Virus record (IMG/VR): IMGVR_UViG_3300046171_000138
Direction: 5' to 3' (one strand)
From: a virus
Length of the DNA: 64,000 bases
Shown: positions 15,854-45,511 of the stretch, piece by piece
Position numbering within the stretch: position 1 is the first letter of the stretch
How the letters are laid out: every line of letters begins with the position of its first letter
Notes under the pieces: model-generated
What the model was told of the DNA's origin: nothing
What the model saw: the letters and a program-made list of their open reading frames with translations, nothing else
Database searches by the model: none
Translations under genes and position numbers: made by a program

Positions 15854-16407
15854 ATTGTAAGACCTGCTACTTTACGTTTGGCAGATTCCAACCACCTACT
15901 ACTGGTCACAAAGAAAACTTTGACGGAGTGAAACGTGCATCAGGACGACACGATTATCGCATTTATATTTCTCAATCCCACGACACTAAAGGAAAGAATC
16001 CCCTCGCACCTCATCGTAAACTATTCTACATGGAGAAGATGTTCCCAGAGCATAAGGGTAAAATCTTTTCGGGTCCTAAACAACCCGTGGAGATCTTACA
16101 GGAGCTTATGATGGATGGGTATAATGAAGCAGTGTTTCTTGTAGGATCTGATAGGGTATCAGCCATGTCATTCCTCCATAAATATAACGGCACGGAGTTT
16201 TCTTTTAGAAAACTAGAAATTCAATCTTCAGGCAGCAGAGATGCTGATGGAGATACCTTTGCTATTTCTGGAACAAAGATGAGACGTGCTGCTTTTGCTG
16301 CCGACTTCAAAACATTTAGGTCTGGTATACCCAGAGCACTGAATGATAAAGATTGTATGGCAATGATGATGGAAATTAAAGGAGCACTCCCCGCTAATTT
16401 TAAATGA
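15844..16407 (+). CDS. cytidylyltransferase-like (HxGH) nucleotidyltransferase
   Basis: FGRFQPPTTGH, KNPL, VGSDR, ISGTKMR. Confidence 0.85.
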   Translation: MALNCKTCYFTFGRFQPPTTGHKENFDGVKRASGRHDYRIYISQSHDTKGKNPLAPHRKLFYMEKMFPEHKGKIFSGPKQPVEILQELMMDGYNEAVFLVGSDRVSAMSFLHKYNGTEFSFRKLEIQSSGSRDADGDTFAISGTKMRRAAFAADFKTFRSGIPRALNDKDCMAMMMEIKGALPANFK

Positions 16408-16679
16408 AAGACTTCAAAAAATTGAGAGAGCAAGCAGTTCGTCAGCAGCATAGACAAACTGATACATTTGCTGAAGGTGATATTATTATGAATGCATTGA
16501 CTGGACAGAAAGGTAGTATACATAGGTCTGGAGTCAACTATGTTATTGCAATTACCGAGTCTGGTGAGATGTTTAGAGCGTGGGTAAAAGACATCCGCGC
16601 CGTACAAGTAATTGATACCATAAATAAAGACAGGAAAAGTAGTATTTTCAATAATGGAAAGACAGAAACCAGTCAATAG
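16404..16679 (+). CDS. hypothetical protein
   Basis: 91-aa ORF, ATGA overlap. Confidence 0.7.
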   Translation: MKDFKKLREQAVRQQHRQTDTFAEGDIIMNALTGQKGSIHRSGVNYVIAITESGEMFRAWVKDIRAVQVIDTINKDRKSSIFNNGKTETSQ

Positions 16680-17382
16680 TGTGCAGCATAATGATGCCTA
16701 TTCCCAGGCACTTATTAATTCGTATTCAAAGTGGATGGGTGGAGATGGATTCCAACAGTCTACTATCAGTGAAGAGTCTGCTACCATCCCAGCACCAGAG
16801 AAGAAAGAACTAGGAGCTCCTGGTCCTGCTGGTGGTACTGATGCATCCACTTCTATCCCTGACCTTTCTGGTAAGGAAAAGAAAGAGGATGACTTCTCGA
16901 CTAAAGATCCTAAAACAAACGCTGCTCCCCCTGATCCTGCTGCTAACCTGCGTACAGGTCAAGGTATGAAGTATTCTGTTGGAGCACAGATCAAAGATAC
17001 TACTAAAGTTGCTACAGAGACACTTTCTTTTGAACTTGATGGTGCAACATACATCTTTGAAGTCAAGATGGATGGCAAAGATGACAATGGTAACACCTCT
17101 TGCTGGAAAGGATATAAGAAGCAAGGCACCAAGAAGAAAGGTGGTAAGGAAGTCAACAACTGTGTCAAGGCAGGATTTGAGCCTACTGGCGAAGAGATCA
17201 AAGAGAAGAAACTTGATCCCGTAGGCAAGGAAGATAAGGACATCGACAACGATGGTGACCACGATAAGTCTGATAAGTATCTGCTTGCTCGCCGCAAGAA
17301 GGTCTCCAAGATTGTCAACACCAGCAAGAAGATGAAAGAGCAGGCAGAACTTCGCAAGGAGATCGAAGAAGAAAAAAAGTGA
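16654..17382 (+). CDS. charged hypothetical protein, possibly internal virion protein
   Basis: K/E/D-rich; CWKGY...NNCVK and DKDIDNDGDHD motifs; ends at slippery A AAA AAG TGA. Confidence 0.7.
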   Translation: MERQKPVNSVQHNDAYSQALINSYSKWMGGDGFQQSTISEESATIPAPEKKELGAPGPAGGTDASTSIPDLSGKEKKEDDFSTKDPKTNAAPPDPAANLRTGQGMKYSVGAQIKDTTKVATETLSFELDGATYIFEVKMDGKDDNGNTSCWKGYKKQGTKKKGGKEVNNCVKAGFEPTGEEIKEKKLDPVGKEDKDIDNDGDHDKSDKYLLARRKKVSKIVNTSKKMKEQAELRKEIEEEKK

Positions 17383-17504
17383 AAGCGGCACACGTCGAAG
17401 TGATGCCTGACATCAAAGACGGTGCTGCCGAGGATAAAGAGAATAATAAAAAGAATAAAAAGTATATTCTCAAGGCAATGAAGAGTCAGAAAAAGGCAGA
17501 CTAA
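17379..17504 (+). CDS. 41-codon ORF in the -1 frame; GTG-start ORF or frameshift extension of the previous gene
   Basis: GTG AAA GCG GCA CAC ... GAC TAA (VKAAHVEVMPDIKDGAAEDKENNKKNKKYILKAMKSQKKAD). Confidence 0.55.
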   Translation: MKAAHVEVMPDIKDGAAEDKENNKKNKKYILKAMKSQKKAD

Positions 17505-17533
17505 ATAAGGGCGTATACTATGCCCCTAAAATC

Positions 17534-17734
17534 ATGCTAGCATTTCTACTTCCCCTGGCGTCAAAAATTATTACCGATGCCATTAACAAAATCCCAGAGA
17601 ATGAAGAACTCGGTGAGAAGATGGTTGAGATCTGTCTTGTTATTCTTGCTAAAGCGGTTAAGCTGACCAAGACTGACATGGATGATCAACTACTTGAAGT
17701 TGTCACCAAAGCGATTAAGAATAGAGAAGAGTGA
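17534..17734 (+). CDS. small hypothetical protein
   Basis: 66-aa ORF after CTAAATA (17501-17507). Confidence 0.7.
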   Translation: MLAFLLPLASKIITDAINKIPENEELGEKMVEICLVILAKAVKLTKTDMDDQLLEVVTKAIKNREE

Positions 17735-17741
17735 TAATATA

Positions 17742-17770
17742 GGGAGGGGATAGTGCCTCTCCCTTTTTTT
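17742..17770 (+). terminator. intrinsic terminator
   Basis: GGGAGGGG/CCTCTCCC stem followed by T run. Confidence 0.7.
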
Positions 17771-30892: not shown

Positions 30893-30921
30893 TTGACAGC
30901 ACCTAGTCACTGTGCTAATAT
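30893..30921 (+). promoter_or_regulatory. sigma70-type promoter for the tmRNA/tRNA cluster
   Basis: TTGACA-17-TAATAT with extended TG. Confidence 0.75.
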
Positions 30922-30928
30922 ATACAGT

Positions 30929-31180
30929 GTTCAAGAGGTTGCAAAGTCTGTTGTTCTGGACAGGGGTTCGATTCCCCTCACTTCCATTGATGGGGGTGCC
31001 ATGGTTTCGACAGGGCAAAAAGGTTGTAATTGTTGACGGGACAAAACCCTAGATGCAAACACATCTGATTCCGCTGCGAATAATATCGTAGCATTCTCCC
31101 GCAGCACCGTTGCTGCCTGAATGGGAGATGGGGGATAGGTTATCCTTCTAATCCAATAACTCTTGGGGGTGTGATGCCCC
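30929..31180 (+). ncRNA. ssrA: two-piece (circularly permuted) tmRNA
   Basis: T-arm AGGGG-TTCGATT-CCCCT (30962-30978) and acceptor 3' strand CACTTCC-A precede the 5' strand GGGGGTG (30992-30998), giving G3:U70; tag ORF ANNIVAFSRSTVAA-TGA at 31076-31120; cross-piece helix CAGGGCAA/TTGTTCTG; ends approximate. Confidence 0.9.
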
Positions 31181-31188
31181 TTCTTTAT

Positions 31189-31265
31189 GGGCAAGTAGCT
31201 CAGCTGGATAGAGCCACGCACTTCTAATGCGTTGGTCGGGGGTTCGAGTCCCTCCTTGCCTGCCA
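31189..31265 (+). tRNA. trnR: tRNA-Arg(TCT), CCA encoded
   Basis: GGGCAAG/CTTGCCT acceptor, ACGCA-CTTCTAA-TGCGT anticodon arm, GGTTCGAGTCC. Confidence 0.93.
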
Positions 31266-31337
31266 GGGCGATTAGCGCAGCGGTAGCGCACCTCCTTTAC
31301 ACGGAGAGGGTCGGGGGTTCGATTCCCTCATCGCCCA
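31266..31337 (+). tRNA. trnV: tRNA-Val(TAC), CCA not encoded
   Basis: GGGCGAT/ATCGCCC acceptor, anticodon loop TTTACAC, GGTTCGATTCC. Confidence 0.9.
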
Positions 31338-35568: not shown

Positions 35569-36648
35569 ATGGCTTCAACTCTTTCAAGGCAACAATCACA
35601 ATCCTCGTGGGATTCTTTCTGCGAGTGGGTAACCTCCACCAACAATCGTTTGTACGTTGGTTGGTTCGGCGTACTGATGATTCCTACGTTGCTTGCTGCA
35701 ACTATCTGTTTCATCGTCGCCTTCGTCGCTGCTCCCCCTGTGGACATTGACGGTATCCGTGAACCCGTCGCTGGTTCACTCATGTATGGTAACAACATCA
35801 TCTCTGGTGCAGTTGTTCCTTCTTCTAACGCAATCGGTCTTCACTTCTACCCCATCTGGGAAGCAGCATCACTTGATGAATGGCTTTACAACGGTGGTCC
35901 TTTCCAACTGGTAGTCTTTCACTTCCTCATCGGCATCTATGCATACATGGGTCGTGAATGGGAACTTTCTTACCGTCTAGGTATGCGTCCATGGATCTGT
36001 GTTGCATACTCTGCACCAGTCGCTGCTGCGAGTGCAGTATTCCTCGTCTATCCTTTCGGTCAAGGTTCTTTCTCCGATGCTATGCCTCTTGGTATCTCTG
36101 GTACTTTTAACTATATGCTCGTCTTCCAGGCAGAGCACAATATTCTTATGCATCCGTTCCACATGCTCGGCGTTGCTGGGGTATTCGGTGGATCTTTGTT
36201 CTCTGCTATGCACGGAAGTCTCGTTACTTCCTCGCTTGTTCGTGAAACAACTGAAACAGAGTCACAGAACTATGGTTACAAGTTCGGTCAAGAAGAAGAG
36301 ACCTACAACATCGTCGCAGCCCATGGTTACTTCGGTCGTTTGATCTTCCAATACGCTTCATTCAACAACTCCCGTTCCTTGCACTTCTTCCTTGCTGCAT
36401 GGCCTGTTGTCGGCATCTGGTTCACCGCCCTTGGCGTCTCCACGATGGCATTCAACCTGAACGGTTTCAACTTCAACCAGTCCATCCTTGATGGTCAGGG
36501 TCGTGTGTTGAACACCTGGGCAGACGTTCTGAACCGTGCTGGTCTTGGTATGGAAGTTATGCATGAGCGTAACGCACACAACTTCCCCCTTGATCTTGCT
36601 GCTGCAGAATCAACACCCGTTGCACTCACCGCACCTGTTGTCGGTTGA
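35569..36648 (+). CDS. psbA: photosystem II D1 protein
   Basis: Unmistakable D1 sequence, C-terminal [10 protein letters not shown]; no intron. Confidence 0.99.
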
Positions 36649-44066: not shown

Positions 44067-44819
44067 ATGCCTAGATCTAGAAAGCGCAACCAACCTGACA
44101 TTAATGGTATGTCAAACAAACAGATGAAGAGGAAGAAACCTATTGATTCTTCTTATCTGTTGCCTGTAGAACCTCTGACAGATAATCAAAAGATTATGTT
44201 TGAGGAGTATGGTAAGGGGCAAAACATCTATGCTTATGGATGCGCTGGTACAGGTAAAACGTTTGTTGCTTTGTACCTGGCTCTCCGTGATGTATTAGAT
44301 GAATACACACCATATGATAAGGTATACATTGTACGTTCTCTAGTTGCTACGAGGGAAATTGGTTTCCTTCCTGGTACACATGAGGATAAAGCATCTCTTT
44401 ATCAGATTCCATACAAGAACATGGTAAAATACATGTTCGAGATGCCTGATGACAACAGCTTTGAGATGCTGTATGAGAACCTGAAGGCACAGGAAACGGT
44501 ATCATTCTGGTCCACATCATTCCTACGTGGTACTACACTAGATAATTCTATTGTTCTTATCGATGAGTGCCAGAACTTAAACTTCCACGAACTCGATTCA
44601 ATCATGACACGTTGTGGTCAAGATACAAAGATCATGTTCTGTGGTGATGCCCGTCAGTCTGACTTGCAGAAGAGCAATGAACGCACAGGCATCGTTGATT
44701 TCCAAAGAATCCTAGAAGACATGAAAGAGTTCTCTTTAGTTGAATACAACATTGAGGACATCGTTCGATCTGGTCTAGTCAAATCGTATCTAATTAGCAA
44801 AATTAACTTGGGTCTTTAA
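44067..44819 (+). CDS. phoH: PhoH-like ATPase
   Basis: GCAGTGKT, IGFLPG, SFLRGTT, IDECQN, CGDARQSD. Confidence 0.95.
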   Translation: MPRSRKRNQPDINGMSNKQMKRKKPIDSSYLLPVEPLTDNQKIMFEEYGKGQNIYAYGCAGTGKTFVALYLALRDVLDEYTPYDKVYIVRSLVATREIGFLPGTHEDKASLYQIPYKNMVKYMFEMPDDNSFEMLYENLKAQETVSFWSTSFLRGTTLDNSIVLIDECQNLNFHELDSIMTRCGQDTKIMFCGDARQSDLQKSNERTGIVDFQRILEDMKEFSLVEYNIEDIVRSGLVKSYLISKINLGL

Positions 44820-45511
44820 TGCATATTTTTAATCATGTAGATGGCATCCTGCCAATTGAAATGAAAGCAGAGATGATTGATGGGAAGAGATACTATGTCA
44901 CTCCTACTGGTGGTAAGTATCCTTCTATCACCACCGTGATTAGTAACAATGCAAGGAAGCAAGCAGGTCTTGCTAAATGGAGAGCACGAGTAGGTAAAGA
45001 AAAAGCGCAAGCAAAAACTACTCGTGGAGCTACCCGTGGTACTAGGTATCACAAACTTGTTGAGGATTATATCAACAACGAGTTAGACACAAAAAAGTAC
45101 AAGGACATGCCACTACCGTGGACAATGTTCCACTCTTCTCGTGAAGTGCTCGATCGTATAAATAGGGTATACCTACAAGAGGCGGCGTTATACTCTGACT
45201 ATTTACAAATTGCAGGACGAGTGGACTGCATTGCAGAGTATGAAGGGGAACTGTCTATCATTGATTTCAAGACAGCAGAAGCACCAAAACGAGAGCAATA
45301 TCTTTACGACTATTTTGTACAAGAATGTGGATACGCATGTATGCTACAGGAAGTGTATGGAGTAACAGTAAAGAAGTTGGTGACGATTGTTGCTTGTGAA
45401 AATGGCGACACTCAAGTCAAAGTTATGCCACCCAAGAAAGAATACTTTGTTAGGTTACAAGAGTACATCCGAGAATACCAGGACAAACATGCTAGACAAA
45501 CTGGAGGATAA
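44819..45511 (+). CDS. PD-(D/E)xK exonuclease (Cas4-like)
   Basis: YPSITTV, RGTRYH, AGRVDCI, IIDFKT. Confidence 0.85.
   Translation: MHIFNHVDGILPIEMKAEMIDGKRYYVTPTGGKYPSITTVISNNARKQAGLAKWRARVGKEKAQAKTTRGATRGTRYHKLVEDYINNELDTKKYKDMPLPWTMFHSSREVLDRINRVYLQEAALYSDYLQIAGRVDCIAEYEGELSIIDFKTAEAPKREQYLYDYFVQECGYACMLQEVYGVTVKKLVTIVACENGDTQVKVMPPKKEYFVRLQEYIREYQDKHARQTGG

Follow-up and report, generated by a model that had tools for sequence, protein, structure and literature searches.

A probable programmed -1 ribosomal frameshift at the 3' end of a putative late gene in T4-like cyanophages

Results

Gene neighbourhood and probable late expression

The window analysed here, a 64-kb stretch of DNA taken as a whole, belongs to a T4-like cyanomyovirus whose nearest match is the Synechococcus phage S-CAM1, at about 82% nucleotide identity. 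Within it, a 242-codon open reading frame (ORF) follows a DUF6267 (ligase-like) gene, a cytidylyltransferase-like gene and a 91-codon ORF, and precedes a 66-codon ORF, a strong terminator and a gene labelled head or virion structural protein in relatives (Table 1). At the 3' end of the 242-codon ORF the 0 frame reads GAA GAA GAA AAA AAG TGA. A preliminary description had listed a Shine-Dalgarno (SD) sequence AAGGAG, an 11-nt spacer, the heptamer A AAA AAG, an immediate TGA, a hairpin 5 nt further on and a 41-codon ORF in the -1 frame, and every one of these lies exactly where it had been placed.

Table 1. Features of the junction and its transcription unit, in window coordinates
Feature	Position	Strand	Basis or remark
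T4-type late-promoter motif, (C)ATAAATA	16620..16626	+	sequence; 27 nt before ATG
0-frame ORF, 242 aa, ends EEEKK + TGA	16654..17382	+	phrog_4359; weak DUF7201 match
Internal Shine-Dalgarno-like AAGGAG, 11 nt 5' of heptamer	17356..17361	+	sequence, conservation
Slippery heptamer A AAA AAG, 0 frame	17373..17379	+	X XXY YYZ register of ORF 16654-17382
0-frame stop TGA, directly 3' of heptamer	17380..17382	+	sequence
-1 frame extension, 41 codons, phrog_11250, VKAAHVEVMPDIKDG...KSQKKAD + TAA	17379..17504	+	ORF list; stop 17502-17504
Hairpin, 16 bp in three stacks, 5 nt 3' of heptamer	17385..17428	+	folding, covariation
Next gene, 66 aa, phrog_402, last of unit	17534..17734	+	ORF list, family match
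Intrinsic terminator, 9-bp GC-rich stem plus T8, closes unit	17741..17764	+	sequence

A TAAATA motif, in the form (C/T)ATAAATA, stands 31-36 nt 5' of the ATG in 54/54 distinct relatives. The T4 late-promoter consensus is TATAAATA, and it is the likeness to this consensus that suggests a promoter role for the motif. Because the motif is conserved in all 54 relatives, the 242-codon ORF is very probably a late gene. At the other end of the junction region, a late-promoter-like CTAAATA (17501-17507) overlaps the TAA stop of the tail and is followed by a small hairpin, GGGC..GCCC (17509-17525), and then by the 66-codon ORF; S-CAM1 and S-CAM3 share this arrangement. Given that layout directly 5' of it, the 66-codon gene at the end of the unit may have a late promoter of its own.

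Some further genes of the window deserve mention. The 91-codon ORF (16404-16679) overlaps the 242-codon ORF by 26 nt and begins MKDFKKLREQ, a start that we take to resemble the T4 capsid-targeting leader. RefSeq names its homologues 'ribonucleotide reductase alpha subunit', as does phrog_4808; on a 91-aa protein, the label looks like a propagated misannotation. Elsewhere the phage encodes a two-piece tmRNA next to tRNA-Arg(TCT) and tRNA-Val(TAC) (30897-31337), together with a psbA gene (35569-36648) whose protein is 92-95% identical to Synechococcus/Cyanobium D1. A tRNA-Lys gene is absent from the 64-kb window.

The 242-aa protein itself is poorly characterized. Its one Pfam match, to DUF7201, is sub-threshold, and neither its family nor that of the tail, phrog_11250, carries a functional annotation. 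Among 3454 relatives in the protein database, each of the top 120 ends in EKK, KKK, GKK or KSK. An AlphaFold2 model built with 43 homologues is mostly disordered (mean pLDDT 47), with predicted order confined to two small beta-hairpins and a C-terminal helix (residues 205-241) that runs into the slip site. A search of the ESM Atlas returned unnamed viral clusters and a weak dockerin lead only. At residues about 184-209 (window 17203-17280), an invariant KKLDPVGKEDKDIDNDGDHDKSDKYLL motif has the look of a calcium loop of the dockerin or EF-hand type. It recurs in other mosaic phage proteins (phrog_38880 and a 1021-aa ORF of S-RIM2) and, as a DNA match, in a Paraglaciecola phage. The preliminary description had called the product a putative virion protein; what the conserved T4-type promoter supports is late expression.

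Conservation of the probable slip site

We compared the junction across four isolate loci, S-PM2 and 80 IMG/VR loci (drawn from roughly 400 IMG/VR relatives), whose proteins are 38-97% identical to the 242-aa protein. The upstream ORF ends in A AAA AAG with an immediate stop in 65 of 82 usable sequences, and in three more the heptamer is followed by a stop one codon later. Removal of duplicates left 48 distinct heptamer junctions, 38 of which were aligned; counts drawn from them refer to related sequences and not to independent events.

Conservation in relatives had been proposed at the outset as a check on the frameshift, and A AAA AAG proved invariant in 48/48 distinct junctions, among them those of S-CAM1, S-CAM3, Syn1, S-PM2 and Sf-CH11. 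The only long invariant block in the junction alignment is AAAAAAGT.A (38/38). The final two lysine codons are AAA in 47/47 and then AAG in 47/47; nearby conserved lysine columns mix AAA and AAG (24/23, 33/14 and 33/15). Ahead of the heptamer the residue may be E, G or S, always with A as the third base of its codon. Relatives with an A-run of six (GGA AAA AAG, TCA AAA AAG) retain the heptamer. The stop directly 3' of it is TGA in 24 and TAA in 22 of the distinct junctions, and comes one codon later in the remaining two; even L005 and L006, at 97% identity to the window, carry TAA in place of its TGA.

The window holds two in-frame copies of A AAA AAG in ORFs of at least 80 aa, and the copy in Table 1 is the only one that forms the last two codons of its ORF, an arrangement beyond what chance would give. 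The other (45091-45097) lies in a 230-aa ORF (44819-45511), 137 codons before the stop and with a -1 frame that is open for just 15 codons; it is probably incidental.

A minority of loci are built differently. S-WAM2 (L174, 865-1404) and about ten IMG/VR contigs have no heptamer, and carry the tail module as a gene with an ATGA overlap. We considered whether this ATG-start clade might represent Prochlorococcus phages and rejected the idea, the nearest isolates being Synechococcus phages. In one contig (L064, about 2016-2600) the tail gene is absent and an unrelated 188-aa ORF takes its place. In S-RIM2 (L088, NC_020859.1, 1106-4171) the modules are fused in the 1021-aa ORF, which has neither a frameshift site nor a VEVMP tail. 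That ORF joins a CTS-like N-terminus, a cytidylyltransferase-like domain, the module of the 91-aa ORF and the DIDNDGD..YLL.RRK module of the 242-aa protein together with long low-complexity stretches, a polyprotein-like mosaic of modules that form separate genes in the window.

The -1 frame tail

The -1 frame is open from GTG 17379, and it is open and homologous in all relatives that have the heptamer. Where the 0-frame stop is TAA, the -1 codon at the junction is necessarily GTA, which is not a start; this is the case in 22/48 distinct junctions. A start codon further upstream in the -1 frame is absent from every one of the 48. Two relatives (L052 and L082) have tails of 49-53 codons, homologous to that of the window, that contain no ATG, GTG or TTG anywhere, and in two others (L007 and L013) the first start comes 20-23 codons into the tail. 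The start-less stretch VNEACGCDDK... is 59% identical over 27 residues to an internal part of an ATG-started homologue, ..LREECGCKDK... (E = 1e-8, a single comparison). In S-PM2, a phage of the TAA type, the codons for VKKPVIE precede the first start.

Nucleotide diversity at codon positions 1, 2 and 3 is 0.33, 0.25 and 0.50 between the junction and the first internal start, and 0.34, 0.30 and 0.59 over the remainder of the tail. Since third-position diversity exceeds that of the first and second positions from the junction on, the tail appears to be translated in the -1 frame from there, and on this pattern it is coding from its first codon. Taken together, the invariance of the heptamer, the start-less tails and the coding pattern imply that many of these phages must reach the tail by recoding.

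The tail had been described as basic, which holds for its last 20 residues, these being strongly so; the first 21 are acidic, and the net charge is about +4. No Pfam family matches the tail of the window. Relatives carry appended modules, either a KKYERMVKHIKK...AWKHKNKNK segment (annotated DUF6321 in Sf-CH11) or, in longer tails, DUF3008.

Downstream hairpin and internal Shine-Dalgarno motif

The hairpin is formed by GCGGCAC (17385-17391) with GTGCTGC (17422-17428), CGTC (17393-17396) with GACG (17418-17421), and TGATG (17401-17405) with CATCA (17411-17415). Its minimum free energy is -23.1 kcal/mol (z = -4.6), and 0/200 dinucleotide shuffles fold as well. Bacterial -1 cassettes of the dnaX/IS3 type have a stimulatory structure about 5-9 nt 3' of the heptamer, a range that includes the 5-nt spacer of the window. 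In relatives we counted a hairpin where the spacer was 3-9 nt, at least 8 bp were formed and the energy was -12 kcal/mol or lower. By this measure it is present in 26/33 distinct junctions of the window/S-CAM3-like clade (median dG -19.6 kcal/mol, median z -3.5) and in 6/6 of the S-CAM1-like clade with its longer tail (-13.9 kcal/mol, -2.05), where a different sequence, AGGCTTG..CAAGCCT, forms it at the same spacing. The Syn1/S-PM2-like clade keeps the heptamer and shows no convincing hairpin (1/9; -9.0 kcal/mol, -0.2), and the ATG-start clade, which has no heptamer, scores 0/9 (-6.8 kcal/mol, -1.0).

RNAalifold found no consensus structure for all clades together, because the Syn1-like clade has no hairpin and bulge registers differ; we therefore counted pairs on the structure of the window and folded each sequence separately. 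Pairing reaches 74% of cells on that structure, and shifting the 3' partners by one to three columns lowers it to 31-57%. Covariation at synonymous third positions is seen for two pairs: one joins an Ala GCN codon with a Gly GGN codon (AU 15, UA 8, GC 1), and the second is CG in 9, GC in 8 and GU in 7.

The SD-like motif is present in 45/48 distinct junctions; its distance from the heptamer is 11 nt in 33 of them, 7 nt in 11 and 13 nt in one. GGAG is retained while the preceding codon changes among AAG, GCG, GGG, AGG and CAG. The published range for SD stimulation of -1 shifts is 9-14 nt (PMC5009743); the 7-nt spacing, characteristic of the Syn1-like clade and its neighbours, falls outside it. 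In Synechococcus WH7803, the host of S-CAM1, the 3' end of the 16S rRNA reads ..GGATCACCTCCTAA with the anti-SD CACCUCC intact; the same end, also written ..CACCTCCTAA, is complementary to the internal SD. The heptamer A_AAA_AAG is especially shift-prone in E. coli, where tRNA-Lys(UUU) is present without a CUU species (PMC5009743). A tRNA-Lys(UUU) was found in WH7803, and a pattern search of this one genome for a CUU-anticodon tRNA, using the anticodon loop and T-arm, gave a single match that ARAGORN does not call a tRNA.

Discussion

Overall, we believe that the junction is best explained as a programmed -1 ribosomal frameshift of the dnaX/IS3 type, a reading to which we assign a probability of roughly 0.85. 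The gene very probably makes both a 242-residue protein and an extended form of 283 residues. These are the two isoforms that the preliminary description had proposed, and the heptamer, the pattern of stops and starts, the coding tail, the covarying hairpin and the GGAG at 11 nt all speak for them.

The slip itself, and the parts played in it by the SD, the hairpin and the stop, we infer from the arrangement of the sequence. Consider a ribosome that has reached the end of the late 242-codon ORF, with two tRNA-Lys occupying AAA AAG (17374-17379). The hairpin 5 nt downstream would resist unwinding, AAGGAG 11 nt upstream would pair with the anti-SD of the translating ribosome, and the next 0-frame codon would be a slowly decoded stop. 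In a fraction of ribosomes both tRNAs would then re-pair one base back, on AAA AAA, and translation would continue with GTG AAA GCG. Ribosomes that do not shift would terminate and release the 242-aa protein; those that do would produce the 283-aa protein, with the tail VKAAHVEVMPDIKDG...KSQKKAD and a junction-spanning peptide ..EEEKKVKAAHVE. At 'shifty stops', slippage occurs in the P site while the A site waits for release factor, and by analogy the stop next to the heptamer probably gives the ribosome another way to shift, through P-site slippage awaiting release factor.

The annotation of these phages favours a different view, one in which the locus consists of two ordinary genes and translation of the 41-codon ORF begins either at GTG 17379, through termination-reinitiation, or at the internal GTG/ATG of VEVMP. 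GenBank and RefSeq list two CDSs in S-CAM1, S-CAM3, Syn1, Sf-CH11 and S-PM2, the window has GTGA at the junction, and a related clade does use an ATG start with an ATGA overlap. Even the hairpin can be accommodated, since its inner stem contains the GTGATG of VEVMP and could mask that internal start until the upstream ribosome opens the stem. At the same time, about half of the distinct junctions are TAA/GTA and have no start there, two tails lack any canonical start, and the stretch from the junction to the first start, which matches the inner part of the ATG-started protein, evolves like coding sequence. The AAGGAG motif is 17 nt from GTG 17379, too far to serve it as a ribosome-binding site, as had been pointed out from the window itself, and no usable SD precedes the internal ATG. 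Two separate genes would also leave unexplained why A AAA AAG is invariant at three synonymous positions. We consider this view unlikely as an account of the conserved arrangement. Nonetheless, with GTG lying within GTGA, some independent or coupled initiation may take place at the junction of the window; it is not the conserved mechanism.

Less likely again is slippage at transcription, in which RNA polymerase would add one A to the A7 run and so yield the same protein product, with the same EEEKKVK junction. Efficient transcriptional slippage usually needs runs of about nine or more (reviewed in PMC5009743), against seven A's in the window and six in several relatives that keep the site; conservation attaches to the in-frame heptamer with its final G and not to an extended homopolymer, and a positioned hairpin, an SD and a stop have no role in RNA polymerase slippage. 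That a homopolymer error or a recent frameshift mutation has split a single 283-codon gene is scarcely credible. Homopolymer error had been raised at the outset as an objection, and the relatives answer it: the A-run followed by G recurs in 65/82 usable, independent assemblies and isolates, which excludes a sequencing error. A search for longer proteins with the tail returned only a GTG-started 84-aa tail and one protein, P0121, that reads through the junction. We rejected P0121 as a natural fusion, since its contig has two frame changes within 95 residues and is evidently error-ridden. Naturally fused, in-frame homologues number 0/120 among the top 120 of the 3454 family members. Further afield, phrog_3326 matches first a segment of the upstream type and then a tail segment with DUF3008, which hints at fusions in distant phages.

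One observation that tells against the frameshift comes from the S-WAM2-type clade, which makes the homologous module from its own ATG, within an ATGA overlap; the module is thus able to function as a protein in its own right. In T4, internal head proteins carry an N-terminal leader, MKT(Y/F)xEF..(I/L)xE, that is removed by the prohead protease. The ATG-started tail homologues, such as that of S-WAM2, begin MKSFKQLREE or MKTFKQLREE, a start that we take to resemble this capsid-targeting leader, and the frameshift tails begin exactly after it. One might imagine the frameshift standing in for the leader, with the slip rate setting the dose of a packaged, and possibly injected, cargo module. The S-WAM2-type clade would have a free-standing module with a leader, MK[ST]FKQLRE, like that of T4 internal proteins; the S-CAM1, S-CAM3, Syn1 and S-PM2 clades would have lost the leader and often any start codon; and these clades would supply the module solely as a sub-stoichiometric extension at the C-terminus of the late protein upstream. 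If true, this would account for the swapping of modules such as DUF3008 and DUF6321-like segments onto and off the tail. We regard it as a speculative proposal, doubtful on present evidence.

In the ocean, the T4-like cyanophages (Kyanoviridae) rank with the most abundant viruses, and S-PM2, Syn1 and the S-CAM phages serve as laboratory models. In all six isolate records that we examined the locus is entered as separate CDSs for two hypothetical genes, and none of the records flags a join or slippage. The literature searched, drawn largely from outside the subscription journals and including the PRFect paper and a 2016 recoding review, reports no cyanophage frameshift at this gene. The mechanism is a textbook one; its site in this cyanophage gene is unannotated in the isolate records examined. 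Should the frameshift prove real, thousands of database proteins would form a family with an unrecognised second isoform, the small 'gene' downstream would in many phages be a recoded extension and not a gene, and gene callers would systematically mis-start the tail ORF. The locus is also a natural variant series for the evolution of -1 frameshift stimulators, offering three designs of hairpin, clades that have one and clades that lack it, TGA and TAA stops, and an ATG-start sister clade.

Three known systems invite comparison. The lambda gpG/gpGT pair, in which a -1 slip close to the 3' end of a late gene yields a short major and a longer minor form with a common N-terminus, corresponds to what is proposed for the cyanophage gene. 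It differs in gene, in genome position and in heptamer, lambda using G GGA AAG. We rejected a G/GT-type tail assembly chaperone as the identity of the cyanophage protein: the locus lies between cytidylyltransferase-like and head-protein genes and not between those for tail tube and tape measure, and the AlphaFold2 model, largely disordered, does not show the chaperone fold. The tau/gamma site of E. coli dnaX is closer in its signals, with an identical heptamer, an internal SD upstream (here at 11 nt) and a stem-loop 5-6 nt downstream (PMC5009743; PMC4344849); a single tRNA-Lys(UUU) in the host may be a further likeness, going by the pattern search of one genome, WH7803. The gene families are unrelated, and the outcome is reversed: a ribosome that shifts on dnaX terminates almost immediately, which makes gamma, the frameshift product, the shorter form, whereas in the cyanophage gene it is the 0 frame that ends immediately, and the frameshift product would be the longer one, by 41 residues. 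In that respect the cyanophage site recalls OrfA/OrfAB of the IS3 family, IS911 for example, where A AAA AAG near the end of the upstream ORF, a 0-frame stop close by, and stimulation by an SD and a downstream structure fuse two overlapping ORFs into a frameshift product that is the longer one. The cyanophage gene, unlike these, encodes no transposase, its extension is a short tail and not a catalytic domain, and its stop immediately adjoins the heptamer.
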